A stretch of 64,000 nucleotides of DNA from an uncultured virus (IMG/VR IMGVR_UViG_3300046832_003565) (taxonomy: Duplodnaviria; Heunggongvirae; Uroviricota; Caudoviricetes), in IMG/VR virus record IMGVR_UViG_3300046832_003565; one strand, given 5' to 3'. A program made the translations under genes and the position numbers. Positions 20,355-38,965 of this stretch are shown piece after piece. Position 1 is the first letter of the stretch. The number at the start of each line of letters is the position of its first letter. The notes below the pieces were generated by a model, which did no database searches, was not told the DNA's origin, and saw only the letters and a list, made by a program, of their open reading frames with translations.

Positions 20355-20385
20355 TATATATCTGTTGCTGATGCAATGTTTGTAT

Positions 20386-20466
20386 CCTCCGGTGGTGGAA
20401 CGGTATACACGACGGACTTAAAATCCGTTGGCGCAAGCCTTACGAGTTCGAATCTCGTCTGGAGGA
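20386..20466 (+). tRNA. tRNA-Leu(TAA)
   Basis: CCTCCGG/CTGGAGG acceptor, ACGGA-CTTAAAA-TCCGT anticodon arm, long variable arm, TTCGAAT T-loop; CCA not encoded. Confidence 0.92.
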
Positions 20467-20470
20467 CTTT

Positions 20471-20542
20471 GGGTTGGTAGCTCAGAGGTAGAGCAGTGCC
20501 CTTTTAAGGCATTGGTCGTGGGTTCGAATCCCACCCGACCCA
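20471..20542 (+). tRNA. tRNA-Lys(TTT)
   Basis: GGGTTGG/CCGACCC acceptor, GTGCC-CTTTTAA-GGCAT arm, GTGGG-TTCGAAT-CCCAC. Confidence 0.95.
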
Positions 20543-20572
20543 TATCCTGTTTTATAGAAAGTTAAAACATAA

Positions 20573-20890
20573 ATGGCAAGAAGACGAAGTTTGTACGTCA
20601 GTCCATATTCACTTTATAGAACAAGCAGAACTCCAGGTGAATATTTTTTCTTTTCATTTGTAATTAATTTATTCATTGTTGCTTGTCAATTAACGTGGGC
20701 ACTAGTTGTATTTTTGATATCTATGATTCCATCTTTGGTTGAAATAATAATATCTATATCAATTCTTTGTTATCACGTTCTTGAGACATTTTTCAAAGTT
20801 GCATACGAATATTTAAAGCCAAAAATTCTTTGCATTTATGAAAAAATCAGAGTAAAATACTATCAATACAAAGTAGGGAGTTCAAAGTGA
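20573..20890 (+). CDS. Hypothetical membrane protein
   Basis: Two hydrophobic segments. Confidence 0.55.
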   Translation: MARRRSLYVSPYSLYRTSRTPGEYFFFSFVINLFIVACQLTWALVVFLISMIPSLVEIIISISILCYHVLETFFKVAYEYLKPKILCIYEKIRVKYYQYKVGSSK

Positions 20891-21096
20891 AAATATTAAT
20901 CGCTTTGCTTTTCGCAGGTTTATGTTTGTCGTCTTTTGCTAACACTAAAAAACATCACGCTGGAAGATGTAGTGGAAGCGATTCATATTGTAATTCTTGC
21001 ACAAATTGTAAATATTGCAAGCATTGTAAACGTGGTGGAACTTGTGCTACGTGCAAAAGGACTGACTCCGAAGTGAAAAATTCTTCTAAAAAATAA
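20887..21096 (+). CDS. Small exported Cys-rich protein
   Basis: Signal peptide followed by CSG..YCNSCTNCKYCKHC..GGTCATC; GGGAG RBS. Confidence 0.7.
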   Translation: MKILIALLFAGLCLSSFANTKKHHAGRCSGSDSYCNSCTNCKYCKHCKRGGTCATCKRTDSEVKNSSKK

Positions 21097-21213
21097 TCCA
21101 TTTTTCACTTGTCTTATCTCCACAAGTGAAACCAATCCCCTTCTCCGACAAGAAGGGGATTATCTTTTAAATATTCAATTTGCATACTCTTTTGCAATGT
21201 GATATAAAAAGAT

Positions 21214-21804
21214 ATGGAAAACCACACGCACAATCACACGCATAATCACACGCACATTCACATAAACGGTAATCATAATACTGTCAATGTAACTCAATCA
21301 AATGATGTTGTAAATCAATCAAATGATGTTTCAGGTGGAGTTGTAGGTTGTGGCGGTATTGGCTGTTTTTTTTGGATTTTTCTAATATTCTTAATAGGTT
21401 GTATTGCTCCTTTATGCAATAGGTCTTATCCATCTCAACAATCTGATAATCAAAAATGGTTTGAGCCTGTACACGGAAGTCATACAAATCAAATTAACTA
21501 CAGAAAATCTTGTCAATTGTGCAAAGATGAATTGTGTGATGATTATATTTTGAAAGAGCATATGGAGCCTACTCGGGGAGAATTACATTGGGGTAATTTT
21601 ATTACAAAAGAAAAAGAAAAATGTCCTATATGTAAGTTTAATTTAAAATTGAGTAAAACAGAACTTAAGAAAATATATTCTGAATCTATCAAATCTATTC
21701 AATATATACCAATATTTTTTGAAGAATACCCAATGATAGATAATGATATTCTTCCACATGGTTCAAAATCTGTTAATTGGATTAATAAAACTAAATCAAT
21801 TTAG
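21214..21804 (+). CDS. Membrane protein with His-rich N-terminus and CxxC motifs
   Basis: HTHNHTHNHTHIH, one TM segment, CQLC and CPIC. Confidence 0.6.
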   Translation: MENHTHNHTHNHTHIHINGNHNTVNVTQSNDVVNQSNDVSGGVVGCGGIGCFFWIFLIFLIGCIAPLCNRSYPSQQSDNQKWFEPVHGSHTNQINYRKSCQLCKDELCDDYILKEHMEPTRGELHWGNFITKEKEKCPICKFNLKLSKTELKKIYSESIKSIQYIPIFFEEYPMIDNDILPHGSKSVNWINKTKSI

Positions 21805-21838
21805 CATTGGTCGTGGGTTCGAATCCCACCCGACCCAT
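21804..21838 (+). repeat. 35-bp duplicate of the tRNA-Lys 3' half (att-like)
   Basis: GCATTGGTCGTGGGTTCGAATCCCACCCGACCCAT identical to 20509-20543. Confidence 0.9.
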
Positions 21839-21946
21839 TTTTCACTTGGTTCTTTACTCCTTTCTACCAAGTGAAAATCAATCCCCTTCTCCGACAAGAA
21901 GGGGATTCTTATTTGCATTATATATAACAGATGATATAATGTAAAC

Positions 21947-22441
21947 ATGGAAAACATCATTATTGCTCCCACTTACGATGTCAATGTTAAGTTTAGTTGG
22001 AAATATCCCGGTAAGCCAATTATAAATGTTGAAAAGCAAGGTTATGTCCAAACAACTAATACCGAAGATAAATTGATTGCTGAAGAATTCATCAATACAT
22101 TTATTGGAAATTACGAGGTTGGTATTTGTGAAGTGACAGAGATGAATATTCTATCGCTTAAGAGAATAAAAACCTATGATGAGTGGATAGAAAAATATAA
22201 ACCAATTAAGAACGAATTTGAAGAATATGGTTCTTTTGAGGGATGTACTTTCGATTACACTGAAGAAGACCAATGGGAATTTGTCAAGAATCAAAATCCA
22301 GCAAATGTTTGGACAATGGTGTGGGCTGAAGATACTCATGCTATCATTCCCGGTTTCCATTGGGTAAATAGAGATAGTTATTTTGTCACTGAGAAATCTG
22401 TTGAAAAAGAAGACTTGTCAAGTGAATATTTGGTGATATAA
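21947..22441 (+). CDS. Hypothetical phage protein, leaderless
   Basis: VWT..I.PGFHWVNR..Y.VTE C-terminal block; TATAAT 6 nt before ATG. Confidence 0.7.
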   Translation: MENIIIAPTYDVNVKFSWKYPGKPIINVEKQGYVQTTNTEDKLIAEEFINTFIGNYEVGICEVTEMNILSLKRIKTYDEWIEKYKPIKNEFEEYGSFEGCTFDYTEEDQWEFVKNQNPANVWTMVWAEDTHAIIPGFHWVNRDSYFVTEKSVEKEDLSSEYLVI

Positions 22442-22447
22442 TAATTT

Positions 22448-22512
22448 CACAAGGTCGCTCATAACCTTGTGTTTACTCCCTCTTCTCGCTCATAGGAAGA
22501 GGGATTTTTTTT
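22448..22512 (+). ncRNA. Candidate two-hairpin small RNA
   Basis: TTGTCA/TGnTATAAT promoter, two stems each displaying TCGCTCATA, T-run end. Confidence 0.55.
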
Positions 22513-22633
22513 GCTCATTCTGTTATTTAGCGTAAAAAAACTTTACGCTAAGACATGCTTTCTATCAAAAATAAATATATCACTTGACATTACACTAAAC
22601 TTGCAATATACTTAATACAAGTGAGATTTTTCG

Positions 22634-22780
22634 ATGATGAAGACCAAGATTTTTTTATTTTTTGAGATGGCGTATATCGCAATCTATTTATTAGTAGCAG
22701 TTTTGGCAGGGATAGTATTGTATCCTTTGTCATTTCTGCTTAAAAAGAATCATTATGAAGAAAATGGATATGATTTATGA
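22634..22780 (+). CDS. Small membrane protein (48 aa, not in ORF track)
   Basis: MMKTKIFLFFEMAYIAIYLLVAVLAGIVLYP; ATGA-coupled to 22777. Confidence 0.5.
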   Translation: MMKTKIFLFFEMAYIAIYLLVAVLAGIVLYPLSFLLKKNHYEENGYDL

Positions 22781-23007
22781 AACACGTACTGTATGAAGTG
22801 ACAGATAATTTCGATATTATCATAAAATTGACTTTTGAAAACTATACATATCTTAATGCATTTATTGAACAACATACAAATGACAAGAAGTATGAGCCAA
22901 AGTTTCTTGTTCTTGAAATTAATGATGAAGGCGATATTGATTTTATTAGAACATACAATGGAACTAAAGAAATTTCGAAAAGATATGTTGTTGAATTCAT
23001 AGATTAG
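22777..23007 (+). CDS. Hypothetical protein
   Basis: 76-aa ORF in the same transcription unit. Confidence 0.55.
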   Translation: MKHVLYEVTDNFDIIIKLTFENYTYLNAFIEQHTNDKKYEPKFLVLEINDEGDIDFIRTYNGTKEISKRYVVEFID

Positions 23008-23140
23008 TGATAACATAAGAGTGTTCAAGATGACTACAGCATTGAGAACAAAATCCAGAATGTGGTGATTCTGGAACAATGTGTGAAGAATGTTTTTATC
23101 TCCTAACTGTGTTCGTTCCGTCAGCATTCTTCACACATTT

Positions 23141-23207
23141 GGGTGGTTAGCTTAAGTAGAGCAGAGGACATAAACCTTTGATATAGGTGCAAATCCTATA
23201 CCACCTA
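23141..23207 (+). tRNA. Atypical tRNA-like element, anticodon unclear
   Basis: GGGTGGT/ACCACCT acceptor, 5-nt D-loop, AGAGG-ACATAAA-CCTTT arm, ATAGG-TGCAAAT-CCTAT T-arm. Confidence 0.55.
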
Positions 23208-23214
23208 TTGGTTA

Positions 23215-23287
23215 GGGCGATTAGCTTAATGGTTAAAGCAGGGGACTCATAATCCCTTGAGTGGGGGTTCGAGTCCCTCATCGCCCA
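23215..23287 (+). tRNA. tRNA with CAT anticodon (Ile2 or elongator Met)
   Basis: GGGCGAT/ATCGCCC acceptor, GGGGA-CTCATAA-TCCCT arm, TTCGAGT T-loop; paired 1:72 argues against the initiator. Confidence 0.9.
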
Positions 23288-23536
23288 TTGTTTGTGTTTG
23301 TTTGGTTGTTATGTGTCCTCTTTCACCCTTCTTGAATAAAATCAGGGAGGGTTTTTTTTGCTCAAAATTATTCTTAGACTTATTTCAATAAGTCTAATAT
23401 CTCATTGCGTCTTAAAATAATAATAATTACTAGGTTTTTGTGTAAAAACTTGCCTATACATACACGCAGAAGGTATACTAGTGTCATAAGGGATTGAGAA
23501 ACCTTATAAAAACAATATACTCTAGAAAGAAAAGTC

Positions 23537-23890
23537 ATGTCTATTACATTAATTGGTAAAGACACACAAGAAAAAAAGAGACGAGGTAACCCTGATTGGG
23601 GTTATGTAATGCCCTATGACGAGGCACGTAATGTAGTGTCAAAAATGGGTTTCAAAAATCTTTCCGAATATCGTGAATGGATTGAACAAGAACACCCTGA
23701 AGGATTTAGTGTAAATCCTTACGCTATTTACAAGTATCGTAATGAATGGGTATCTGCTCGTCATTTTCTTGGTAAGACTGATTGTACTACAAACACCAAG
23801 CTTGTTGCAAGAGAAGATGAAGGCATTGTGGAAAAATTCTCTTTTGCAAAAATTCGCTCAATAATAATGCAAATAATACATCCCAAATAG
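23537..23890 (+). CDS. Integrase-repeat (INT_rpt-like) domain protein
   Basis: YDEARNVVSKMGFKNLSEYREW..P..NPY..Y..EW..FLG pattern. Confidence 0.65.
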   Translation: MSITLIGKDTQEKKRRGNPDWGYVMPYDEARNVVSKMGFKNLSEYREWIEQEHPEGFSVNPYAIYKYRNEWVSARHFLGKTDCTTNTKLVAREDEGIVEKFSFAKIRSIIMQIIHPK

Positions 23891-24107
23891 AAGCATAGAG
23901 AAGAGGGCGAAAGCCCTCTTTTTATGTTTAATGTGCCAGCTGCAAATATTTGACAAGAATATTTTCTAGAGATAAAAATATATCTCTAAAATATGGAATG
24001 AGCAAATTTTTAGTTATTTTTAGTCATTTACCGTATTTTACTTGCACAGTTAGTGGAACTAGTGTATTATCTAAGTGTTAGTTATCACCTTTGTTTAGGA
24101 GACTGAG

Positions 24108-24647
24108 ATGCCAGCAATAACACTTACAAAACCAGAGACCTTTTCTCTTCCAAACCTTACATCGCCAATCGTTTCCCGTCCAAGCAAGATTAGAGTCAAA
24201 ACTGTAATGGCTGACTATGATACTGTGAAGAGTATGATTGCACCACTAGAACTTGGTTCTATGCGCGAGTACCAAGAATACATCGTGGCGAACAATCTCA
24301 CTGATATATTCCCTAAGAATCCACAAGCTGTTTACAACAATGTTTGGGTCAATACTAAGGATTTCTTGTCAATGGCTCAAGAACGCATTGATGCTCGCAA
24401 TCTTGCACGTAGCAAGAAAGCAGTTGCTGTTCGTCTTGAGAAAAAAGCATTACGCAAAGCAGAGGCAATGGTTCAACCTAAGATTGAAATGCCTAAGACC
24501 AATGTAGTCACGCCAAATGCAGTGAATACAATCACTCAACTTATTGACTTGGGTGTGCCAGTCAATCTTGTAGAATCTGTATTCAAGTCGATGGATTTGT
24601 CAATAGCAGAACTCAAAGACTGTGTTATCTATCTACTGAATAAGTAA
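24108..24647 (+). CDS. Integrase-repeat-like domain protein (paralog)
   Basis: YDTVK..LGSMREYQEY..PKNPQAVY..W..DFL. Confidence 0.6.
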   Translation: MPAITLTKPETFSLPNLTSPIVSRPSKIRVKTVMADYDTVKSMIAPLELGSMREYQEYIVANNLTDIFPKNPQAVYNNVWVNTKDFLSMAQERIDARNLARSKKAVAVRLEKKALRKAEAMVQPKIEMPKTNVVTPNAVNTITQLIDLGVPVNLVESVFKSMDLSIAELKDCVIYLLNK

Positions 24648-24833
24648 GATAACTAGTTCGCAACTAAGGACGCAGAAATGCGTTCTTTTTTTTTGCTCAA
24701 AACCAAACTCAGGGGTATGCTCATACCCCTGAAATACTTAAATGTCAAATAAAAATAATCCTTGACAACCCTAAAAAAAATTGATAATATATAGACATCA
24801 AAAGGGTAACACCTTAAGGAAAGAAAAAGTAAG

Positions 24834-25391
24834 ATGCCGATTTTCAATACCATGTCAAAATTCAATGTTTTGACACCAACACAAACAGTGTCACCTAAAA
24901 TTGTTGATTCTATCAATGTTAATGTGGTTGAAGAAACCAAGACTGAACTGGAAAAGATTGTATCCAAAGTTTATTCACTTGATACTATCACACAAGCACA
25001 ATACTCGAACCTTAAGAGTTCAGCAAAAGTAGAATATATTCGTGAGCGAGTTTTGGCATACAACTCTATGCATCCTGAAACTCAAATCAATTCTTTGGAC
25101 AAGTATTTCGCATTTGTTCAAGAGAACAACCTTTTCTGGATGAAGAATCCACAAGGGTCAAACTACCCTAAGTTTTCCACATATTGGTTTTTTGGCAAGC
25201 AACGCAATCAATCTTCCCCATCTGTTCCTAAAGTGGAAGCAGTCACTGTTACAGAAGGTACATCAATAAATGATGTCATTATGTTCTTGCGTAACCGTGG
25301 TGTATCTCTCAATAAGATTAAGTCATTGGATATGAATTTCCAATCTGATAAAGAAGAGCTTGTATATCTTCGTATGCTTCTTGCAGGCTAA
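24834..25391 (+). CDS. Divergent paralog of 24108..24647
   Basis: INSLDKYFAF..KNPQ..WFFG and similar C-terminal GV..L..MD helical region. Confidence 0.55.
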   Translation: MPIFNTMSKFNVLTPTQTVSPKIVDSINVNVVEETKTELEKIVSKVYSLDTITQAQYSNLKSSAKVEYIRERVLAYNSMHPETQINSLDKYFAFVQENNLFWMKNPQGSNYPKFSTYWFFGKQRNQSSPSVPKVEAVTVTEGTSINDVIMFLRNRGVSLNKIKSLDMNFQSDKEELVYLRMLLAG

Positions 25392-25555
25392 AATATCTTA
25401 TAATCTATTGTATCCCCTTCTTGCAAGGGGATATTTTTTTGCCATTACTCAAATCTAGGGTAAAAAAATCTTTACCCTATGTTGACAAATGAGCAAATGT
25501 ATTTCATAATATTTTTGCACAGGGAAACTTGTAGTATTTGTTTGTAGAGAATATT

Positions 25556-25777
25556 ATGAAAAAGATTAATTTATCTGATTTCAAAAAGATGGTAGATGCT
25601 GAATCATTCAGTATCATTTCCCGCGCCTTGAAGAGCAACAATGTAGATTCATTACAGCTCCGAAAAACGAGCGTAAATATCCAGGCTATTGTTCGAAATC
25701 TCCCAGACCATGAAGTAAAAAACAAGTTTGTCAAATGGGCATCTGGATATGATTTCGCCATTATAGATGTGATATAA
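25556..25777 (+). CDS. Hypothetical protein
   Basis: Start moved to MKKINL. Confidence 0.55.
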   Translation: MKKINLSDFKKMVDAESFSIISRALKSNNVDSLQLRKTSVNIQAIVRNLPDHEVKNKFVKWASGYDFAIIDVI

Positions 25778-25784
25778 TCCATGT

Positions 25785-26108
25785 ATGGAATTATCACTTC
25801 AGGATGTTAAAATACATCACAAGCTCTGTCAAGAAACATTAGCATTTTCAGCCGTTTTACTCATAGATGAAATTCCATTTGCACGAGTAAGTAATTTTGG
25901 TAATGGTGGTTCTCATACATTCATTCCTGTAAATGATGATGCATATAATTACCATGAGATAAGAAAACAAATCAATGAAATGGAAGAATATCTCAGCAAA
26001 GAGCCAAAATGGTATGACAGAGAAAATGGTGGATACCTTGATTACAATCTCGAAATCGCCATAAATGAAATGGTAATTGCAAAATATGAATCCTTTACAG
26101 AAATGTAA
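25785..26108 (+). CDS. Hypothetical phage protein
   Basis: ET.AFSA..VSN.G.GG block common in phage early proteins. Confidence 0.65.
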   Translation: MELSLQDVKIHHKLCQETLAFSAVLLIDEIPFARVSNFGNGGSHTFIPVNDDAYNYHEIRKQINEMEEYLSKEPKWYDRENGGYLDYNLEIAINEMVIAKYESFTEM

Positions 26109-26167
26109 GGGATTTCTTGCTTTTAATTTGATTTCATGTTATATTATATATGCAAGGAGATAGTGTA

Positions 26168-26515
26168 ATGGGACTTGATAATATTTGGAAAAAGAGCAAA
26201 GAAGAAAACGGATTTGTTGAAGGCGATTTCAAAATCTGTGGCGGTATGTTTTCTGGTTCTGGAAACGATTCATTTCGTGGCAAAGTTTACGACCGCTTTG
26301 TAGAAGATGTCACTGGTGTTTCTCTATATGGCGACCCAGAAACATTTGAAATCTCAAACGAAACTATTATGCAGATGGCAACTGACTTGGAAGAAACAGA
26401 ATGGCGAGATTCTTACATTCAAAACTATGATATTGAAGAAGAAGAATTTAAAGACTTGGTCAAAATGTTTCGTCTTCATGCCGATGCTGGTCACTATCTG
26501 TTAGCGTGGTATTAA
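26168..26515 (+). CDS. Hypothetical phage protein
   Basis: AGGAG RBS, MGLD start, FRGKVY..VTGVSLY. Confidence 0.7.
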   Translation: MGLDNIWKKSKEENGFVEGDFKICGGMFSGSGNDSFRGKVYDRFVEDVTGVSLYGDPETFEISNETIMQMATDLEETEWRDSYIQNYDIEEEEFKDLVKMFRLHADAGHYLLAWY

Positions 26516-26829
26516 TGAAAACTTGGCAAAGAGTTAAGCTTAAACTCAAGAAAAAAGCACCACTGGCTTGTTTATGGCATGACTGTGATTCAGCATTAAT
26601 TTCCACTGCTCGCATTCGCAGAGAAAAAGACTGGGTCACTGTCGCTGTATACGATTATGAATCTTTAGTTTATCATTTCTACGAAGATTTTAAAATTACA
26701 AGTGAAGATGAAGAATTTGATATTTATGAGCAAGCTGTAGATTTTGTTCATTTTAATATTATTGGTGCATACATTGGGAAACGCACCCCAATATATTGGA
26801 GCGAAGGCAAAAATTACAATCCTTGGTAA
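26515..26829 (+). CDS. Hypothetical phage protein
   Basis: VAVYDY..FNIIGAYIG..TP block; TAATG coupling. Confidence 0.65.
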   Translation: MKTWQRVKLKLKKKAPLACLWHDCDSALISTARIRREKDWVTVAVYDYESLVYHFYEDFKITSEDEEFDIYEQAVDFVHFNIIGAYIGKRTPIYWSEGKNYNPW

Positions 26830-26930
26830 AAACTTTTGGAGAAAATATTCTCCAGAGGTTTTTTTACAACCTCTGATTTTTATTTTTGTCAAATATTTGC
26901 ATTTTACCAATAATAAGATATAATTAGGGT

Positions 26931-27059
26931 ATGAACACAAGAACAATCACAAAACTCGTTCTGGCAGTAGTTTTCCTTGCTATTTTGGGCATCGTTGGTC
27001 GCAATGATTATAATGATAAAATGGAAGAACTTGGACACAGTGAGTTGAAGGCAAAGTAA
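26931..27059 (+). CDS. Small membrane protein (42 aa, leaderless, not in ORF track)
   Basis: MNTRTITKLVLAVVFLAILGIVGRNDY; TATAAT 6 nt before ATG. Confidence 0.55.
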   Translation: MNTRTITKLVLAVVFLAILGIVGRNDYNDKMEELGHSELKAK

Positions 27060-27298
27060 TGGATATTGAAGTTACGATTGGTGATATTGAGAATATTTTA
27101 TTAGCGCATAAAACTTTGCTGCCGCGTGATGTTATTGAGAAGCTTTATGATGAGTATGCAGATATTTTCAATGAAATTATAGCCAATGCAAAAGATTGCA
27201 CTGATGACAAAGAGAAGCAATGGCAGTTTGTTTATTCTACTATAGAAAGAATGATGATACTTGATGGACTCTACATTACAGAACCCTCAGTCTATTGA
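27059..27298 (+). CDS. Hypothetical protein
   Basis: TAATG-coupled ORF. Confidence 0.55.
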   Translation: MDIEVTIGDIENILLAHKTLLPRDVIEKLYDEYADIFNEIIANAKDCTDDKEKQWQFVYSTIERMMILDGLYITEPSVY

Positions 27299-27539
27299 TT
27301 TGCGCAAGACATTTAGTAGGATTGTATATTTTATCGACCAAATGAATCAAGGTAAATCTAGGTCAGCTGTATTACGAGAATTAGAATTCACAGAGGCTGA
27401 ATTTCAGTTGCTCTTGGACAGTATTCATTATATCTCCAGGCTGCAAGACAATGATGCAAATATTTTGTTTCCAGGCGGAGAAATCCCATTTGGTGGTATT
27501 TCTATTTATCAATCAGAGAAGAAACTTCTTACGTTATAG
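27264..27539 (+). CDS. Hypothetical protein
   Basis: ORF in a + strand run. Confidence 0.5.
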   Translation: MDSTLQNPQSIDLRKTFSRIVYFIDQMNQGKSRSAVLRELEFTEAEFQLLLDSIHYISRLQDNDANILFPGGEIPFGGISIYQSEKKLLTL

Positions 27540-27573
27540 TTCCCATCGCGTGTAAGTGATGTATAATGTTAAG

Positions 27574-27642
27574 ATAAGTCGATTCCCCTTCATGACTTAT
27601 AGCCGAAAAGATAGACAAGACCTCCGCTTGTCTATCTTTTTA
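27574..27642 (+). ncRNA. Candidate small RNA with ACCTCC loop
   Basis: TATAAT at 27562; ATAAGTC/GACTTAT stem, then a 14-bp stem with loop ACCTCCG and T-run. Confidence 0.55.
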
Positions 27643-27777
27643 ATTTCACATGAGAGATCTTTATGAAAAAAATAATTTGCTCAAAATGTAACTCAGAGAT
27701 ATAAAGTAATATCTCTGATAAATGTTTATATCAAATATTTGCTATTTAGTCGAAAGTGTGTTACAATGCCCTCAGTA

Positions 27778-28437
27778 ATGAATAAACAGCTTGCCAGTGT
27801 GGTGATTCCTTTTATAGAATCAAGGTTTCTGCAAGTGGCACAGCTTGAAGGTGACATTACATTTTTCCCCTTAAAAAAAGAAAATCATTTACAGGTTATC
27901 ACAGACAAGGATAAATCTAGTAAGTTTGGTGAAGTTTTCACTCCCCTATGGCTAGTGGATGAAATGATAACCCGTGTATCTGATTATGACTGGAAAAATC
28001 CCAACATAACCACATTAGATTTGTGTGCAGGCTATGGGCAATTTACAGTTAGAATGCTTCGGAAGAAGTTTTCTGTACTAGGTGATGACTTTGATGTATA
28101 TAAGTTTTTAAAATCATACCCTGATGAGATTCGCAAGAAACCTGCTACGCATTCTTTTAGCGAATTACAGTTATCATCTGCGTACAAATTATTATTTATA
28201 TTTGGAACAAGAATTAATCTTTTCATAGGTGATTCACGTATGTTGAAAAATCTTCCAGAAGGTGCTAAGGGTATTTGGTATTATTGCACTAAATCAAAAA
28301 ATTGGATAGAATGTACTGACAAGGCAATTGAATGGGTTGGTTCTCCTAGCAGATATAATATCAAAAGAGAGATTAAGTTTGTTGATTTGTTCACGCAGGA
28401 GTTTATAACAGATGTCAATTCTGAAACAGAAGTTTGA
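27778..28437 (+). CDS. N-terminal (SAM-binding) part of an amino-methyltransferase
   Basis: FGEVFTP (motif X) and LDLCAGYGQF (motif I); no NPPY/DPPY motif IV. Confidence 0.75.
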   Translation: MNKQLASVVIPFIESRFLQVAQLEGDITFFPLKKENHLQVITDKDKSSKFGEVFTPLWLVDEMITRVSDYDWKNPNITTLDLCAGYGQFTVRMLRKKFSVLGDDFDVYKFLKSYPDEIRKKPATHSFSELQLSSAYKLLFIFGTRINLFIGDSRMLKNLPEGAKGIWYYCTKSKNWIECTDKAIEWVGSPSRYNIKREIKFVDLFTQEFITDVNSETEV

Positions 28438-28774
28438 TGAAAATTTACTGCAAGACAAAGACTTTCGCCAAATATTTTTTGACCGATTGACAAAGTTGCA
28501 AAACATTTGGCAAAAGCATCGTACACCTGAAGACATTACACGGAAGATGACTGCTAAAACAGATTTAGCAAATAAGATGATTTGTGTTATTTTCAACATG
28601 GAATTGGTTGAACAATTAATAGTTGAAGATGGTGTACCGCCACAAAATATTCGTTTCATAGCAGACAACCCACAAGAAGCTTTGTTCGCTGATAAAGTAT
28701 ATGGTGTTATTTCAAAGTATGTCAGTGAAACAGATGGCATTAAAGGTATCCGAAAGGCGATGGAAGAATTCTAA
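28412..28774 (+). CDS. Hypothetical protein coupled to the MTase catalytic part
   Basis: TAATG overlap with 28774; TPEDITRKM resembles a degenerate motif X. Confidence 0.55.
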   Translation: MSILKQKFDENLLQDKDFRQIFFDRLTKLQNIWQKHRTPEDITRKMTAKTDLANKMICVIFNMELVEQLIVEDGVPPQNIRFIADNPQEALFADKVYGVISKYVSETDGIKGIRKAMEEF

Positions 28775-29658
28775 TGAAATTTGATTTGGTAATAACAAAC
28801 CCACCTTACAACAATTACATTGATTTGAACATCTTGGAATCTTTGCACGATATATCAAATGAATTTATTGTGATTCACCCATGCCCGTATTTGATGAAGA
28901 ACACTTTTGATACTAACGACACATTGAAAGAATTTATAAATAGAACATCTGGCACAGTCAAGTCTATTGAATTCTTGGATGGCTGGGATACATTTGCAAT
29001 TGAAAACCCATCTCCTTGTGTTATCATTCATTATAACAAGAAGCTTGTAACAGATTGCGATGTATCATTCACTCAAGATAATTTTTTCGGTTATAAATCT
29101 GTTCCCTACAAAGTAAAATCATTATTAGATATCTCTTATTTTGGTGAAAGTTACGAAACAATCGTAAAGCCTTTTGAGAAAATAATATCTGCTCACATTG
29201 CCATAAACGGTTCTATTTTAAGCACAAAGATTTCCAACCCGAAAAATCTAAACCCAAGTGCATTTCATTGTCAATTGCCATCAATCATTGGTCATACAAA
29301 TACAGCAAAGAAATTCACAAAGTTTTTCATGAATGATTTCTTTGCATTCATGCCTAAGAATGGAACATTTCTTCCCGAAGTGTTAGCAGATGGCACTTTC
29401 AAACCAACACGTAAAAATAACTGGGAATTTGCAACATCGCAAGAACGTGATAACTTTGTATCATTCCTGAAAACAGATTTTGCAAGATTTTGTCTCGCGT
29501 TACGAAAGTTCAATAAAAATCTTTCTGATGGATTCTTCAACATGGTTCCTAACATGGATTGGAACAGAGCTTGGACAGATGATGATTTGTTCAATCATTT
29601 CAATCTTGACCAGAACACTAGACAATTCATTCTAGATTTCATCCCCGACTTTCACTAG
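28774..29658 (+). CDS. Amino-methyltransferase catalytic/TRD part (Eco57I-like)
   Basis: Starts KFDLVITNPPY (motif IV); C-terminal F..VP..DW..WTDDDL..F.L typical of type IIG-like TRD ends. Confidence 0.8.
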   Translation: MKFDLVITNPPYNNYIDLNILESLHDISNEFIVIHPCPYLMKNTFDTNDTLKEFINRTSGTVKSIEFLDGWDTFAIENPSPCVIIHYNKKLVTDCDVSFTQDNFFGYKSVPYKVKSLLDISYFGESYETIVKPFEKIISAHIAINGSILSTKISNPKNLNPSAFHCQLPSIIGHTNTAKKFTKFFMNDFFAFMPKNGTFLPEVLADGTFKPTRKNNWEFATSQERDNFVSFLKTDFARFCLALRKFNKNLSDGFFNMVPNMDWNRAWTDDDLFNHFNLDQNTRQFILDFIPDFH

Positions 29659-29783
29659 TCGGGATTTTTTTTGACAAATGATGAAATCAGGGGTATGAGC
29701 ATACCCCTGCAATATGGATTTAGCAAATATTTTATCTGATATTAATGCTTGCACTAAATCTGCCCATAAAGTATACTGGTGAT

Positions 29784-31436
29784 ATGAACATCATGAACCT
29801 GTTCCGCAGAAAACCTGAACCATTACCTCCGCCACGTAGTGTGACTGCACAATACACATTGAATACACAAGAATACGATAAGTTTCTTGGGTTATTTCGT
29901 CAGCACCAAATAGACGCTCTCAACTCTCTCGTAGATGTCAAGGTAGGTCAAATTTCTTTGCCAACAGGAACAGGCAAGACATATGTTCAAATGGCTGTAC
30001 ATCTCAATGATATGATTGAGAAAACAAAAATTGGCAAAACTGGCGTGTATGTGATTTCTGCCCATAGACTGATTCTTTGCTCACAGTTACTTTCACAGTT
30101 CATGTATGTTGCATCAAAGATTGGTGTGGACTATGATGTTCTCAAAGTAAACTCTGAAAGATTCAATGTTGATGATGTTATTCTTAAGCTTAAGGATAAA
30201 CAAGATGCACCGGACAATTTCTTTGCATTGAATCGTCACAGAATTTCTGGCTCTCAGACAACCAATTCTGAAGAAGTCAAAGAAGCATACAATAATGCAG
30301 TAAAGAACAAAAGACATCTTTTGATTGTATGCACATATCATTCTTTCGATAGAATGTCCAAACTGCCAAAAATTGATATCATCACCTACGATGAAGCACA
30401 CATTATCGGAGAAGAATTTAAAGATAATGTCAACAAAGTAAAACATCTAATTGACCGAGAGTATTTCTTCACTGCTACTAGAAAAGTGAGTGGACATAAT
30501 GAAGGTATGAACAATACTGAATTCTATGGCGAGATACTACATTCTGAATCTCCAAGAACAATGATTGACCGTGGGGAAATTGTAAGACCCGCTATTCATG
30601 CTATCAGATTGCCCAATGAAGCAAGAGGAGATTTCCAAAACACTAGCATGGTAATTCAGTCAATAGGTGAAGGTTTTGTTCATCACCATAAACTGATTAA
30701 GGAAAATTCAAAATTCCCAGATAAGATTGGAGCCAAAGTTGTTGTGGCTGTATCTGGAAATGATGATTTGACAGATATAATTACAAACCAAGCATTCAAA
30801 ATATGGGCTAAAAACAATTCCATTGAGATATTTTCCTTCTCATCTGCAAATGGATACACTCACAATTTTGAATCTGTTGGGCGCATGGAAGCATTTGACC
30901 GAATGCAAAGCTTACCAGATGAACAAAATGCTATCTTGATACACATTGATATTTTATCTGAAGGCATTGACATTCCATCCATCACAGGTTGTATGCCCTT
31001 GCGTAATATGTCGAACATCAAGCTTGCCCAGTTCATTGGTCGTGCCGGTAGACTCCATCCCTTTGACCGACAGCGATTGTATGATAATATAATAAAGCCT
31101 GACCAGTTTGATGAATTCGTAAAACCTCATTATTACGTTATATTCCCTGAATTCTTGATTGTGGCAGAAACTAATAGAATGGAAAGATTTATCGGAGAAA
31201 TGCTAAACACTTACGAATTGATGCCATTTGATATTCCACTGATTGATGAATTTTACTCTTCCCCAGATGAAGTGCTACCGAAGATTACAGATGCAGACTC
31301 CACCAATAATCGTGATGATGTATCCAAGCTTGAACATATCTTGCGAGATATAATGAAAGAACAAATTACGATTGCTCTTAATGATTCATCAGATGAAGAA
31401 ATTTTAGACTATTTGGAGGGAATCGGTAATGCTTAA
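29784..31436 (+). CDS. SF2 helicase (ResIII/type ISP-like)
   Basis: PTGTGKT, DEAH, FTAT, ILSEGIDIP, QFIGRAGR; start set 6 nt after TATACT. Confidence 0.9.
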   Translation: MNIMNLFRRKPEPLPPPRSVTAQYTLNTQEYDKFLGLFRQHQIDALNSLVDVKVGQISLPTGTGKTYVQMAVHLNDMIEKTKIGKTGVYVISAHRLILCSQLLSQFMYVASKIGVDYDVLKVNSERFNVDDVILKLKDKQDAPDNFFALNRHRISGSQTTNSEEVKEAYNNAVKNKRHLLIVCTYHSFDRMSKLPKIDIITYDEAHIIGEEFKDNVNKVKHLIDREYFFTATRKVSGHNEGMNNTEFYGEILHSESPRTMIDRGEIVRPAIHAIRLPNEARGDFQNTSMVIQSIGEGFVHHHKLIKENSKFPDKIGAKVVVAVSGNDDLTDIITNQAFKIWAKNNSIEIFSFSSANGYTHNFESVGRMEAFDRMQSLPDEQNAILIHIDILSEGIDIPSITGCMPLRNMSNIKLAQFIGRAGRLHPFDRQRLYDNIIKPDQFDEFVKPHYYVIFPEFLIVAETNRMERFIGEMLNTYELMPFDIPLIDEFYSSPDEVLPKITDADSTNNRDDVSKLEHILRDIMKEQITIALNDSSDEEILDYLEGIGNA

Positions 31437-32007
31437 GATTGCACACGTTCATGGATACCCTGTGGAATATCTTGGATTGTTTGCCAAGTTCAAAGATGGT
31501 GGAACAATTCGTGATTTTATTAATGAAGTAGAATCCTTAGCCACCAAGCTTAAACTTGATGAAGATGACAAATTCGAGTTCAAGGGTGATTGCCTAGAAG
31601 TTCTCTGTGAGATATTCTTCAAACTCAATCCAACATCTCCGCGTTTTGGTTTAAGAGATTATGTTCCAAATACCAAAGACAATGACTATGGTGTTGATGG
31701 TACTGGTTATAATGCCAACGGTGATAAATGCGCTGTTCAGGTTAAGTATAAGCAAAACCCAGCAGAGCAGATTCTCTTTGCCGATATTGCAAAAACTTAT
31801 ATGTCAGGTGCAGAACAACACGAGATTGATGTAAAGAAAGATAAAATCATTTACATCTTTACAACAAGTAACATAGAATCAAATCCACTGCAACTTTTCA
31901 AGGACAAATATGTATTTATTTCCCGCAAAATGATTGCCAGTGAAATTGATAACAACGTGAACTTTTGGCAGGTTGCATATCTGGAAGTTTACAATTCGCT
32001 CAATTAA
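31429..32007 (+). CDS. Mrr-like PD-(D/E)XK nuclease
   Basis: GD.LE..E, DYGVDG, AVQVKY motifs. Confidence 0.7.
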   Translation: MLKIAHVHGYPVEYLGLFAKFKDGGTIRDFINEVESLATKLKLDEDDKFEFKGDCLEVLCEIFFKLNPTSPRFGLRDYVPNTKDNDYGVDGTGYNANGDKCAVQVKYKQNPAEQILFADIAKTYMSGAEQHEIDVKKDKIIYIFTTSNIESNPLQLFKDKYVFISRKMIASEIDNNVNFWQVAYLEVYNSLN

Positions 32008-32115
32008 AAATATCCTGAATTTTCTTTTGACAAAAGGGAGATTCAGGGGTATTGTCAATACCCCTGATAAATGAAATTAGCAAATATTTAGTGTAAGGTA
32101 TGGTAGAATATATTC

Positions 32116-32460
32116 ATGGAATCAAAGACTTATGTATACTTCTCAAAAACAGGTATAGGTTATGAGATGACTGGGGATGATGTAATCCCAGGAATGAAAG
32201 GTTTCATTAATAAAGATGATGCCTATGTTATCAATTATTCATATAGTGATTTGAGTAATTCTATGCTCTTTTTTGTATATGAGTGGGATAACATTAAGAG
32301 AGATTTCAAAACAGTTTTTGAATCATATCGCAAAGAATTGATTCTTGTAGGTATGGTGAAGCATATTGATAATCTTCCCATTGTTATTAGTAAAAAAATA
32401 CTTGAGATGTATGTTGATGATACCGAAGAATTAGAATTGGAAAAAAATGCAAACTCGTGA
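32116..32460 (+). CDS. Hypothetical protein, leaderless
   Basis: TAGAAT 6 nt before ATG. Confidence 0.55.
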   Translation: MESKTYVYFSKTGIGYEMTGDDVIPGMKGFINKDDAYVINYSYSDLSNSMLFFVYEWDNIKRDFKTVFESYRKELILVGMVKHIDNLPIVISKKILEMYVDDTEELELEKNANS

Positions 32461-32959
32461 GCAGAAACTTAAACTATTAAAGAAGACAATTGAAACACTT
32501 TGGCATGGTGTTTCTGATACTAAAGAGGGCGATTATCCACGTATAATCTCACTTTATAAAGAAGTATTGATGTATGATTACCACGATGCTGATTCTTGGG
32601 AAAATATGATTTGGCTCATGTGGTCTATGGCTGTCAATAAGAAAGATACAGTGTGGTTATTTCAAGCAGAGAAATTTGCTAAGCGATATCTTTCACTTAA
32701 CCCAAATGGTTATCGTGCTTATGAATACCTTGGTCAATTCTATCGTATTATGTATGTAGATTTGAGATTGGCTGTTAGATATTATGAATCTGCGATTAGA
32801 TGGAAAGATGCTCCAAAGAGCACTCATCATTCTCTTATTAGTGTTTGTGAAAAATCTGGCGATAAAGTAAAAGCCATTGGGTATTGCAAAATGACTCTTG
32901 CTAGATTTCCCAATGACCCTTATACTAAATCAAAAATCGAAGTACTAACTAAACAATAG
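32447..32959 (+). CDS. TPR-like repeat protein
   Basis: LNPNGYRAYEYLG..AVRYYESAI, KAIGY..LARFPND. Confidence 0.7.
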   Translation: MQTREQKLKLLKKTIETLWHGVSDTKEGDYPRIISLYKEVLMYDYHDADSWENMIWLMWSMAVNKKDTVWLFQAEKFAKRYLSLNPNGYRAYEYLGQFYRIMYVDLRLAVRYYESAIRWKDAPKSTHHSLISVCEKSGDKVKAIGYCKMTLARFPNDPYTKSKIEVLTKQ

Positions 32960-33317
32960 TTATTTTTTCGAAAGGAATAGAAATCGGAGCACCCTGTGTT
33001 TTGTCATCCTTCATTCGGATAACAACTACATAGGGTTTATCTTTTAATAAATAATCATCAAGAACAACACCTAAATTTGTTTCGCCTTGTTTGTCTTTCC
33101 ATGATATTTTTGTGCCTGGTTCAATCAAATCTTTCTCTTTATTCAACTCAACCCACAGCTGCGAGTTTTTAGCCTTGTATTCTGTAACTTCTTGATTTAA
33201 ATCAGTATTGAGTTTACGCAGCAACGAAAGTTGAGATTTTGAGTTCTCAAGTGCAAAAAATAAAAAACCACTTCCAAATAAGGAAAGTGTTAGAGAAACA
33301 CCTAGAAATACTACCAT
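32949..33317 (-). CDS. Membrane-anchored coiled-coil protein with SH3/Tudor-like end
   Basis: N-terminal TM, coiled coil, PGTKISW..GVV; GGAGG upstream. Confidence 0.55.
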   Translation of the reverse strand: MVVFLGVSLTLSLFGSGFLFFALENSKSQLSLLRKLNTDLNQEVTEYKAKNSQLWVELNKEKDLIEPGTKISWKDKQGETNLGVVLDDYLLKDKPYVVVIRMKDDKTQGAPISIPFEKITIV

Positions 33318-33351
33318 TGTTTTTCGAGCCTCCTAACGGTATTATACGTAT

Positions 33352-33621
33352 ATGAAAGAAATAATAACTGCAATAGAAAAAAATAGTAAGTTTCGAGAGA
33401 ATAAGATAATCCGTCCACACTTGATGAATAGACTGGGTATTCGATTAGATTTTCCCGAAGGCTCACAATGTATTCTCTGGACAGATGGTAAAAAATATTA
33501 CGCTAGATGCGAAGCGTTTGGTACTTTATTCACTATGAATATACCACGCAGTGTCGGAGATAATATCTGGCAAAAATTCATGACAGAGTTTGAAGGAAAT
33601 TATACCTATGAAAATATCTAA
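33352..33621 (+). CDS. Hypothetical protein, leaderless
   Basis: TATTAT 6 nt before ATG. Confidence 0.55.
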   Translation: MKEIITAIEKNSKFRENKIIRPHLMNRLGIRLDFPEGSQCILWTDGKKYYARCEAFGTLFTMNIPRSVGDNIWQKFMTEFEGNYTYENI

Positions 33622-33674
33622 CTTTTTTTGTAACAAAACTTGCAAAGTTGCATAGAATGTCATATACTATCTCT

Positions 33675-33766
33675 GTTAGTTCTCATAACTTCTAACATCA
33701 TCCTTAGTTGGGTTTCTTTCTCCTGCACAATGGGAAGAGATTTATTTCTCTTCCCATTGTTGCTTT
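33675..33766 (+). ncRNA. Candidate small RNA
   Basis: TTGCAA-17-TATACT promoter; 5' hairpin with CTCATAAC loop, TTTCTCCT segment, 13-bp terminator stem. Confidence 0.55.
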
Positions 33767-33934
33767 ACAGAATGATTACTATATTATATCCAATATTCAG
33801 GTCCAGTTTTAAAAACTTATTTGCTCAAAAAGAATATCAGGGATATTAGTAATATCCCTGAGGTAAAGAATTGTCAAATATTTTTGGCAAAAAAATAGCC
33901 CCTATTTTGGGGCTTGAGGTTGACATTTTGATGT

Positions 33935-34189
33935 TTATATGGTACAGCATCCACAGCAAGGTGCATCTTCGCACCGACCCTTTGCATTGCGGGTGTATTC
34001 CTTGCCACCGATGATGAAGGTGCTAATCTCTTTGGATTCACCACTATTACGGCGAGCCTTGGCTTCTTGTCCGCATTCTGGGTGGCAAACATAGTACTTG
34101 CCTTTCCACTTCCACATATCACCGTCCCCAGCAGGAACAGTGCCTCTGCAATACACACAAGTGCCATCGTAACGATTTTTATATCCCAT
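33935..34189 (-). CDS. Cys-rich zinc-binding phage protein
   Basis: CVYC..HPEC and GRCEDAPCCGCC; AAGGAG RBS. Confidence 0.7.
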   Translation of the reverse strand: MGYKNRYDGTCVYCRGTVPAGDGDMWKWKGKYYVCHPECGQEAKARRNSGESKEISTFIIGGKEYTRNAKGRCEDAPCCGCCTI

Positions 34190-34256
34190 TGTCTTTAACT
34201 CCTTGGATTAATAATACGGCAATTTTACCTGAAATGCAAGATAAAAATGTAATATA

Positions 34257-34427
34257 TTAAAACTCTTCTTGGACATCAATACCATTGTCTTCACAATACT
34301 GGTAGATTTCCTTTTTACGATTTTCTTTTCTACGAAACACTTCAATGCCACAAGAGTCAAGGAGAATGTAATTGTTATTCTTCTTGACAATAGTCCAAAT
34401 TACAATAGGATAATCATCTAAAAGCAT
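34257..34427 (-). CDS. Small hypothetical protein (56 aa, not in ORF track)
   Basis: MLLDDYPIVIWTIVKK...; ATG start, fits between neighbours better than 34208..34390. Confidence 0.45.
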   Translation of the reverse strand: MLLDDYPIVIWTIVKKNNNYILLDSCGIEVFRRKENRKKEIYQYCEDNGIDVQEEF

Positions 34428-34469
34428 CTTGTTGTACTTGGGGGGAGCTAAGTCCCCCCCAGCCTTTCT

Positions 34470-34781
34470 TTATCGGATGTCCACCGAATCAACTTTGCGA
34501 TTCTGATTATAGTAAACAGTGGTCATCTTATCACTGTCATCAATAGTTAGAGTATCAGCATAAACTGTACTCTCTTCGTGAATTTCAGTATAGTCGATAT
34601 CTGCTTCATTATCAACTACAGCCTGAATCAAATGAGGATTCAATTCATCCCATTCGGCTTTGGTGAACTTCTTAAAGTTTGCTGGGTCAAGACCAGCCTC
34701 TTCACAGCACTCATTGAACACGTCTTCGTCAATCACCAAATGATAATTAACTTCGACAACACCTTCGATTGAAATTTCCAT
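34470..34781 (-). CDS. Acidic hypothetical protein
   Basis: AAGGAG RBS before MEISIEG. Confidence 0.65.
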   Translation of the reverse strand: MEISIEGVVEVNYHLVIDEDVFNECCEEAGLDPANFKKFTKAEWDELNPHLIQAVVDNEADIDYTEIHEESTVYADTLTIDDSDKMTTVYYNQNRKVDSVDIR

Positions 34782-34919
34782 ATCATTCTCCTTACCGAAC
34801 ACAAATATTATAAGGGTAATAGAGCCAGATTGCAAATTTATTTATTTATTTGACAAAAATAAAAATTGGCGGAAAATTGCTAAAATACCGCCAAGATACA
34901 CTTACAGCAAATTAAAATA

Positions 34920-34972
34920 GAAAAACCTGACAAAATGCCAGGTCTTCTAATGAACAACACCAACCAAGTAAC
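34920..34972 (-). ncRNA. Candidate ~52-nt GU-rich small RNA
   Basis: TTGCAC-17-TATAAT promoter (35007-34979), terminator ACCTGGCA/TGTCAGGT with T-run, no ORF between. Confidence 0.55.
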
Positions 34973-35009
34973 ACATATATTATACTAGCAAGAAACCAAA
35001 AGTGCAATA

Positions 35010-35396
35010 CTAGTTTGAAAACATATCAAAACAATATTTGGTTCTTGTTTTTTTCACGTTGATTTCATACACAGATTGAAAATCATATTTTGGTTTTGCA
35101 ACCCATTGAAAATTATCATTGAATGTTCCAGTGTTAATCCATCCATGTATTGTTGAGAGATAGGTTGTTGGAATCCCATGGGGAATCAAATATATTTCCA
35201 CTACATCAAGAGGTTGATTGTATTCGTGGCGGATAAATCTGATTTTCATATGTTGAAGGATATCCCTTATTTCATTTTCTGAATAAGGGACTTCCACTCT
35301 AGTGATGAAACTACTGTTCCACGCTAAGTTGCAAATAGCCAAGTGTACAAAATGAGAAGCTATCTCCATTTCATAGGCATTATTAAGGTCTATCAT
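35010..35396 (-). CDS. Hypothetical protein
   Basis: 128-aa ORF with a -10 box close upstream. Confidence 0.55.
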   Translation of the reverse strand: MIDLNNAYEMEIASHFVHLAICNLAWNSSFITRVEVPYSENEIRDILQHMKIRFIRHEYNQPLDVVEIYLIPHGIPTTYLSTIHGWINTGTFNDNFQWVAKPKYDFQSVYEINVKKTRTKYCFDMFSN

Positions 35397-35405
35397 ATAC
35401 CGTTA

Positions 35406-35708
35406 TTATATCACTTCCAACGGAATATGGTTTTTGACACGCATGACAGGATAGGTATTGAAACCTGATTCGTTTTTTTTACCTGTATCTTCAAAATGCC
35501 CACAGTCGATAAGGTCTTTGTAAATTTCCCAACAATCACTTCTATTAAAATGAAACTCTCTTGGTTCCAATTCTACGTCAGGAAGATTTGTTGTCAATCT
35601 AGCCCAAGGAAACCCACCTTGTATTAATTGAATAGCAAGGCGACCATTTGGGTACTTTAGAAATTTTGCATCGAGCCAACCAAATTTTGTTTTAAATCCG
35701 AAATCCAT
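35406..35708 (-). CDS. DUF4313-like protein
   Basis: YPNGRLAIQL..PWARLTTNL..DTG..SGF..YP; GGAGG RBS before MDFGF. Confidence 0.65.
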   Translation of the reverse strand: MDFGFKTKFGWLDAKFLKYPNGRLAIQLIQGGFPWARLTTNLPDVELEPREFHFNRSDCWEIYKDLIDCGHFEDTGKKNESGFNTYPVMRVKNHIPLEVI

Positions 35709-35709
35709 G

Positions 35710-35904: not shown

Positions 35905-36041
35905 GTCTCATTATATCAAATATCAGATATAGTGCAAATTAATTAAATACTTGCTAATTCCCTAACGCAGAGGTATAAATCATACCTCTGACAAATATTT
36001 TTAGCAAAAAAAAATCCCAAGATTGCTCCTGGGGTTCATTA

Positions 36042-37810: not shown

Positions 37811-37833
37811 ATCAATATATTACAGTCAAATCT

Positions 37834-38945: not shown

Positions 38946-38965
38946 GTTATTATTATATCATTACC

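Follow-up and report, generated by a model that had tools for sequence, protein, structure and literature searches.

The uncultured virus IMGVR_UViG_3300046832_003565 (IMG/VR), analyzed here as a stretch of 64,000 nucleotides (nt) that we call the window, raises the question of whether a phage deploys a set of small RNAs (sRNAs) against translation initiation. An initial annotation had singled out four short units (U1 to U4) and several hairpins near tRNA genes, among them hairpin A, which precedes a terminator (B), and hairpin C. It proposed that these are trans-acting sRNAs whose anti-AUG and anti-Shine-Dalgarno (anti-SD) loops block translation initiation on mRNAs of the host or on earlier mRNAs of the phage. 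Comparison with relatives favors a different answer, to which we assign a probability of about 0.7: the units are non-homologous parts of cassettes resembling the PeSL cassettes of T4-type phages, plus one clade-specific sRNA or 3′ element, U1. On this account, the units would represent gene 3′ ends (U1, U2, and U4), a tRNA 3′ trailer (A together with B, present twice), a tRNA 5′ leader (C), and a rearrangement junction (U3).

Conservation and possible function of U1

Judged by sequence comparison, U1 is a genuine functional RNA element of 65 nt, with two stem-loops that carry the same GCUCAUA loop and with a strong terminator. It folds at -26.2 kcal/mol (z -6.2), its loops measure 8 to 9 nt (11 to 12 nt in four variants) and its stems 7 to 12 pairs, and hairpin 2 of the window type combines 10 pairs with 8 T. 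Each genome carries a single copy; in the window, as in a 358-kb relative (G002), this copy lies between the phage genes for tRNA-Lys and tRNA-Met. The ORFan gene next to U1 (open reading frame [ORF] 21947-22441) encodes a protein of 164 amino acids (aa) that has no Pfam or PHROG family, is placed by a protein atlas only in an unnamed viral cluster (0.76), and yields a structure model with a pLDDT of 45.

We compared loci that reach the 3′ end of this gene. U1 was present at 30 of the 32 metagenome loci and at 5 of the 8 viral loci, being absent from the other three of the latter. At three of the 30 loci (L199 to L201), a different hairpin replaces hairpin 1. The relatives that lack U1 (L012, L014, L017, L222, and L223) keep the same -10, after which a ribosome site and then a gene come next. 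The loci provided 28 distinct 95-nt stretches, of which 22 were aligned and six (L011, L192, L197, L213, L215, and L216), with the same core as a kept row, were omitted. The stems of hairpin 1 fall into three types among the 22 variants, with double changes at three pairs separating the first type from the second, and all eight pairs of this hairpin have changed on both sides. In this alignment, which was itself fitted to the model, 94.4% of 396 cells were paired, against 47 to 61% in slid controls, and none of 500 shuffles reached any of five covariation measures. The GCUCAUA motif occupies the loop of hairpin 2 in 22 of 22 variants and that of hairpin 1 in 20 of 22, with L203 (one change) and L199 (hairpin 1 replaced) as the exceptions. 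The TCAT that had originally drawn attention to the U1 loop is part of this conserved motif.

The U1 promoter overlaps the end of the upstream gene, so that its TATAAT coincides with the Val-Ile-stop codons of ORF 21947-22441. It scores 11/12 with TG in the promoter scan and agrees with the -10 consensus of this phage. When 28 distinct genes of the 164-aa type were aligned by codon, synonymous change occurred in 80 of 109 conserved degenerate columns. The codons of the -35 (TTG 27/27 and TCA 24/24) and of the extended -10 (GTG 27/27 and ATA 27/27) showed no synonymous change at all, and the four codons between them all vary. This pattern indicates that the U1 promoter is under selection.

A strict search for promoter-to-terminator units (a phage-consensus promoter, a terminator within 90 nt, and no ORF of at least 35 codons between them) found only U1 in the window and only the U1 ortholog in the 358-kb relative. 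The U1 covariance model gave 24 hits of at least 65.8 bits, all of them orthologous, and the next best scored 29.1 bits. Scanning the viral collection for a double loop with a T run produced 101 matches, five of which were double hairpins. Elsewhere, CGCTCATA occurred six more times in G002 and once in G001 (the same phage at 100% identity, set aside as a comparison), in no case in a hairpin loop. GCUCAUA or CUCAU loops on stems of at least 7 pairs were found only in U1 and the tRNA-Met gene, besides scattered weak stems. No Rfam family fits U1: only four tRNAs reach the gathering threshold in the window, and the best non-tRNA matches within 21000-23400 score 17.7 to 28 bits against thresholds of 38.9 to 68.

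U1 would be produced as a short early RNA, besides serving as the 3′ end of the upstream mRNA. By analogy with leaderless genes, transcription is expected to start at the second base of hairpin 1 (A22449). It may act via sequence-specific recognition of its identical loops, the partner being either a protein or a UAUGAGC-like sequence that pairs with them. The loop word also forms the anticodon loop of the tRNA-Met encoded by the phage, and AUG lies within the complement of the word; this would fit either a loop-reading protein or pairing with an AUG-containing sequence. An exact complement of the loop motif, UAUGAGC, is found at 22891-22897 in ORF 22777-23007; the word is invariant in the 15 relatives' loci listed, and its neighboring codons change synonymously. 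We regard this site as a weak lead for a pairing partner, and only as a lead, because a 7-letter word is expected in 1 kb about one time in four. Called genes that start with ATGAGC (two in the window, at 14945 and 44430, and four in G002) are not above expectation. A still more specific proposal is that U1 is an abundant early sRNA of a jumbo-phage clade with largely leaderless early genes, and that its loops, bearing the tRNA-Met anticodon-loop word with its CAU, decoy or titrate a reader of the anticodon arm of initiator or elongator tRNA-Met or pair near an AUG, with UAUGAGC at 22891-22897 as one candidate partner. We consider this proposal quite improbable; if true, U1 would give the phage RNA-level control of start-codon recognition.

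What stands as new here, on comparative grounds, is a candidate clade-specific sRNA or 3′ element in a widespread clade of uncultured freshwater jumbo phages. U1 is a clean comparative sRNA candidate: its promoter is under selection, one of its stems covaries, both loops share an invariant motif, and each genome has one copy.

Units 2 to 4 and the tRNA-region hairpins

All seven structures of the initial annotation fold as it described (z -3.7 to -7.8, equaled by 0 or 1 of 200 shuffles), and the CTCC text was located where it had been placed. TCAT is indeed present in all four units, that of U4 sitting in an arm of a weak 5-pair stem, outside any loop. The units do not form one family, as the U1 covariance model misses U2, U3, and U4 entirely and reaches 65.8 bits or more only at the orthologous site.

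The units had been described as ORF-free, each with a -10 box (three of them also with a clear -35) and a terminator; in the scans, U1 has both a promoter and a terminator. A 36-codon ORF (27556-27666) spans U2, and a 39-codon ATG ORF (33730-33849, within ORF 33640-33849) opens in the 5′ arm of the large U3 hairpin. The U1 and U4 terminators are on the terminator-scan list, on which neither the U2 hairpin nor the large U3 hairpin, which has no T run, appears. As for promoters, the -35 of U4 fails the generic promoter scan and that of U2 is poor. The U2 promoter-like site begins 1 nt past the stop of ORF 27264-27539, and the U4 -35 begins one base past the TAG (35010-35012) of ORF 35010-35396. 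Since U1, U2, and U4 all start at or right after an upstream stop codon, each is equally the 3′ end of that upstream gene, and both U2 and U4 extend to the terminator-like hairpin of the gene in question. Flanking-protein searches for relatives of U2 and U4 found the same phage only.

The proposal of promoter-driven sRNAs is supported by the behavior of U1 at the sequence level and not supported for U3. Five relatives (G002, G003, L038, L039, and L040) have the gene upstream of U3, and U3 is missing from all of them. In those five relatives, a palindrome, a promoter, and a gene come after this upstream gene. The next shared gene past U3 (34470-34781) is flipped in the window relative to the relatives. 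Because of this absence and this flip, U3 appears to be a cassette promoter that a rearrangement left stranded at its junction.

Hairpin A, terminator B, and an early promoter constitute a conserved module 5′ of the 164-aa gene. The cassette promoter at 21912-21940 is conserved in the upstream regions of all 46 protein-anchored relatives, 36 of which have hairpin A; in 29 of these 36, by our own row count, the hairpin lies directly 3′ of a tRNA end or tRNA remnant. The stem of hairpin A is nearly invariant and its loop is variable, with 20 distinct loops. CTCC occurs in 10 of these (21 of 36 loci), several reading CTCCTT, and the loops without it resemble decayed versions (e.g., AGTCCTTTC, ACAGCTTTC, GCCTTTC, and ATTCTTTC). 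A stem-anchored scan found at least six module copies among the 118 stretches listed, four of them without CTCC. In hairpin C, the stem shows a compensated change in G002, and CTCC is missing from the G002 loop, leaving it in 2 of 3 copies. The two modules of A and B score 25.2 and 22.4 bits with the U1 covariance model, which hints that U1 and the tRNA-trailer module are old paralogs.

The last 35 nt of tRNA-Lys recur unchanged 3′ of ORF 21214-21804, just ahead of the second module copy, as the scar of a cassette insertion; at this site, relatives have a full tRNA, a remnant, or an HNH-like gene. ORF 21214-21804 itself encodes an ORFan protein of 196 aa whose N terminus contains a His-rich repeat (family D5, 12-nt period, 21220-21262) and is an insertion between the two copies of the trailer module.

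Table 1. Coordinates of the units, tRNA-region elements, and cassette features in the window
Feature	Position	Strand	Description
U1 promoter	22415..22442	+	-35 TTGTCA 22415-22420, 16-nt spacer, extended -10 TGATATAAT 22434-22442
U1 RNA element	22448..22512	+	Hairpin 1, 5-nt spacer, hairpin 2/terminator, T run
U1 hairpin 1	22448-22471	+	Loop CGCUCAUA
U1 hairpin 2/terminator	22477-22504	+	Loop CGCUCAUA, T run after
ORFan gene, 164 aa	21947..22441	+	Predicted leaderless; always directly 5′ of U1; relatives 58-100% identity
U2	27540..27642	+	Weak promoter-like TTCCCA, 16 nt, TATAAT; hairpin 27574-27600; terminator-like hairpin 27605-27641, loop ACCUCCG
U3	33640..33766	+	Promoter-like TTGCAA 33640-33645, 17 nt, TATACT 33663-33668; hairpins 33675-33696 and ~33725-33763
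U4	34920..35007	-	Promoter-like TTGCAC 35007-35002, 17 nt, TATAAT 34984-34979; weak stem; terminator 34947-34921
Trailer module, copy 1	21103..21161	+	Hairpin A 21103-21131, loop CTTATCTCC; terminator B 21134-21161
Trailer module, copy 2	21840..21907	+	Hairpin A 21840-21876, 15-nt loop with ACTCCTTTC; terminator B 21880-21907
Early promoter of copy-2 cassette	21912..21940	+	TTTGCA, 17 nt, TGATATAAT; 6 nt before ATG 21947
tRNA-Lys 3′-end duplicate	21804..21838	+	Exact 35-nt copy of 20509-20543; repeat family D3, 100% identity
tRNA-pair 5′ leader	23054..23139	+	Hairpin 23054-23075; hairpin C ~23078-23139, 28-nt loop with ATCTCC; fold z -5.1
-10 located 5-6 nt before ATG	13614, 19914, 21932, 25770, 32101, 40302	+	
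-10 located 5-6 nt before ATG	44160, 38960, 35918	-	
Palindromic element (centers)	16330, 18506, 24709, 27693, 29687, 32043, 33837, 35967, 37450, 39520		
Palindromic element, other arms (centers)	19860, 22530, 23375		
Palindromic element 3′ of U2	27676..27740		TTTGCTCA, spacer, palindrome, spacer, ATCAAATATTT; repeat families D1, D2, D8, D9
Palindromic element 3′ of U3	33819..33883		Same element as at 27676..27740

Alternative explanations of the units

A set of sRNAs acting through anti-SD and anti-AUG loops gains some support from CTCC being unpaired in U2, U3, and hairpins A and C, and from its retention, at times as CTCCTT, in half of the hairpin A loop variants. In addition, many early phage genes look leaderless and hence would escape an anti-SD RNA. 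Duplex energies between ten unpaired segments and 426 called phage start regions were inconsistent on the predicted complementarity: five segments (the U1 loop, the U2 terminator loop, the U3 linker, the 5′ part of U4, and the A1 loop) beat all but 0 to 4 of 60 shuffles, and the other five did no better than shuffles, 14 to 55 of 60 of which reached them. The idea that selection maintains an anti-SD motif is contradicted by comparison with relatives. The anti-SD text of U1, TTTACTCCC, is confined to the window's strain, with other variants reading ...AATCCC, ...TATCCC, ...CATCCC, and ...AGTCCC, and CTCC is missing, as given above, from half of the hairpin A variants, from four of the six module copies listed, and from hairpin C of G002. 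A census of intergenic hairpins on the sense strand, limited to strong ones (stem of at least 8 pairs and loop of 4 to 14 nt), counted CTCC in 2 of the 40 loops from the window and 1 of the 113 from the 358-kb relative. CTCC is enriched 2.2-fold in sense intergenic DNA, yet so are other C-rich words (TCCC 2.5-fold and CCCT 3.6-fold), with the same pattern in the 358-kb relative; the enrichment reflects C-rich terminator arms and carries no specific anti-SD signal. TCAT, which occurs 472 times on the plus strand of the 64,000 bases and thus has by our arithmetic a chance of about 0.4 per unit, is depleted in sense intergenic DNA (19 seen versus 36.1 expected). With U3 absent from all five informative relatives and no homology shared among the units, we find such an sRNA set very improbable, and the anti-SD text is probably drift in pyrimidine-rich loops.

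Several observations weigh against the reading that we prefer, namely PeSL-like cassette parts plus a functional U1, and some of them favor a U1 that acts only in cis, as the compound terminator and 3′ stabilizer of the upstream mRNA; its promoter would feed downstream genes by read-through, which would make U1 a leader or attenuator, and a separate sRNA would play no part. U1 was never found away from the 164-aa gene, where all five double hairpins among the 101 pattern matches also lie, so that it could be only the 3′ end of this gene, with its promoter serving downstream genes. The -10 retained in the five U1-less relatives has a ribosome site and a gene after it, and L196, L203, and L210 combine a weaker T run with a ribosome site and a gene that lie within about 15 nt of hairpin 2. 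Two-hairpin 3′ ends are found as well after rIIA (18429-18485), after tRNA-Lys, and in U2. However, a plain terminator needs no twice-repeated, invariant 7-nt loop while its stem changes, hairpin 2 of the window type has its 10 pairs and 8 T, and the next gene there has its own cassette promoter. A purely cis-acting U1 is unlikely in our estimation. An alternative that draws on the loop sequence holds U1 to be a double mimic of the tRNA-Met anticodon arm that binds, titrates, or decoys a reader of the CAU loop; a synthetase, a modification enzyme, and an anticodon nuclease are examples of such readers. Its loops contain CUCAUA followed by A or G, like the CTCATAA loop of the phage tRNA-Met gene at 23246, two identical loops would suit a dimeric binder, and U1 is located between tRNA genes in the window and in G002. 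Against this mimicry, the loops have 8 to 9 nt (11 to 12 in four variants) in place of the 7-nt loop on a 5-pair stem of a tRNA arm, the stems of 7 to 12 pairs are unlike a tRNA stem, and the match is a mere 6- to 7-letter word. A literature search for anticodon-mimic phage RNAs returned nothing relevant, and we rate this possibility as highly unlikely.

The remaining points that count against the preferred reading concern the comparative evidence and the other units. Hairpin 2 is conserved without double changes, five of its pairs being invariant and four varying on one side only. The alignment used for counting pairs was fitted to the structure and so favors it, the sequences share kinship, so that shuffle counts are not probabilities, and the viral and metagenome sets of loci may overlap as records. 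Our crude gene calls removed the U1 hairpins from the loop census. U2 and U4 may still be real RNAs. Lastly, contigs of a freshwater metatranscriptome run (X1) are sparse over 20000-36000, and none covers any unit, which makes them uninformative on transcripts either way.

Early-region cassettes and related systems

A near-identity search against cultured phages gave no match, and rIIA is less than 30% identical to that of known phages. Protein searches led to relatives with contigs as long as 358 kb (G002) and 316 kb, so the phage is an uncultured jumbo phage. The window is the ORFan-rich, small-gene early region of such a phage from freshwater, a label that we take from X1, the one metatranscriptome run that contains part of the phage (13% of sampled words were present in its contigs). 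A PHROG scan of the window placed rIIA at 16441-18438 and rIIB at 18628-19794. Small plus-strand genes extend across 19.8-33.6 kb and minus-strand genes across 33.9-40.3 kb, and for 16 of 18 small ORFs, scans against Pfam and PHROG gave no family.

This region would be assembled from repeated regulatory cassettes. Within each such intergenic unit, one or two 3′ hairpins, closing with a C-rich terminator, are followed by a symmetric palindromic element and then by an early promoter. Terminator-like sites, at 33 in the window versus 9.5 +/- 3.5 in shuffles, are clearly real. Generic σ70-like sites, at 99 versus 80.0 +/- 8.2, are barely above chance in this AT-rich DNA, and generic promoter-like matches are weak evidence here. 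The phage's early promoters have the form TTGCA or TTGACA, about 17 nt, and TGATATAAT. We counted 17 exact copies of TGATATAAT in the window, against about 3 expected from base composition by our arithmetic; 11 are just 5′ of gene starts, one is that of U1, and five are antisense within genes. At nine genes, a TGATATAAT-type extended -10 ends only 5 to 6 nt ahead of the ATG (Table 1), from which leaderless mRNAs are predicted for many early genes. Such mRNAs would be unusual for a jumbo phage in comparison with phiKZ, for which the published account reports that leaderless transcripts were not detected (PMC8244752).

The symmetric element of about 60 bp is composed of TTTGCTCA, 9 nt, a 20- to 26-bp palindrome, 9 nt, and TTAGCAAATA, and has at least 11 copies in the window. 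Its arms vary among copies and relatives, with symmetry retained. A regulator might bind the element, or recombination might take place at it. We also considered it as a σ70 promoter with a central -10 and rejected this candidate, since the sixth position of the hexamer is unconserved. Relatives vary at the cassettes through gene insertion, loss, and flipping. The genes at 34252-34787, 37539-37854, and 38659-38962 are each flipped relative to G002 165.8-160.3 kb, with gene order preserved, a pattern that suggests inversion of cassettes one gene at a time rather than a single large inversion.

The PeSL cassettes of T4-type phages combine a stem-loop terminator with an early promoter, are repeated in hyperplastic regions, and mediate modular shuffling (PMC2839356, PMC4122927). 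The cassettes predicted here resemble these in being small composite intergenic units that join a stable stem-loop terminator to a strong σ70-like early promoter and include AT-rich DNA, and in being repeated through an ORFan-rich region, where they mark the borders of insertions, deletions, and replacements among relatives (PMC2839356). Both hallmarks are found in the sequence, namely a terminator beside a σ70-like promoter and repetition in a variable ORFan region at the borders of insertions and deletions. In contrast to PeSL, a palindromic element with TTTGCTCA and TTAGCAAATA arms intervenes between terminator and promoter, the promoters are often 5 to 6 nt from an ATG that lacks a Shine-Dalgarno sequence, and some cassettes have a second, upstream hairpin. 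PeSL phages are T4-type; the rIIA of the present phage is below 30% identity to that of known phages. The cassette architecture and the predicted leaderless early genes indicate how this clade organizes and shuffles its early genes. In AT-rich phage DNA of this kind, -10 and -35 look-alikes and TCAT or CTCC beside terminators are poor evidence for sRNAs until compared with relatives.

Small stable RNAs are found in the tRNA gene region of T4. For virulent phages more generally, a phiKZ study indicates that sRNAs have been predicted in few, mostly with unknown function, and that the one predicted for phiKZ could not be confirmed (PMC8244752). U1 is like these RNAs in being a short, conserved promoter-to-terminator early unit near tRNA genes that is so far without a target, and unlike them in having no Rfam family, two identical loops, and a constant position beside one ORFan gene. 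Among bacterial RNAs, the C/U-rich loops of Firmicutes sRNAs of the RsaE/RoxS type pair with Shine-Dalgarno sequences. Hairpins A and C and the U2 terminator have comparable pyrimidine-rich CTCC loops, but here CTCC is unconserved and not enriched in hairpin loops genome-wide. RNAs of the 3′ETS-leuZ type are regulatory RNAs derived from a tRNA 3′ external spacer. Hairpin A and terminator B would resemble them, as tRNA 3′ processing would release both from their position behind the tRNA in 29 of 36 relatives; in contrast, hairpin A is conserved only in its stem sequence and not in its loop. In the thrS operator, an anticodon arm is mimicked for a dimeric synthetase. U1 would be analogous in that its two stem-loops display an anticodon-loop sequence, whereas its loop size and stems differ from those of a tRNA arm and it is not in the 5′ leader of a synthetase gene.

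Two minor observations concern the vicinity of these elements. The two-hairpin 3′ end of rIIA at 18429-18485 has a first hairpin with a 13-nt loop containing CCTCATT, followed by a terminator. ARAGORN and Rfam together identified four tRNA genes in the window (Leu, Lys, an odd one of 67 to 69 nt, and Met). The odd tRNA-like gene (23140-23208), which ARAGORN called as Tyr with anticodon ATA and which scores 45 bits against the Rfam tRNA model, is kept in G002 and G003, the G002 anticodon loop being 1 base shorter.

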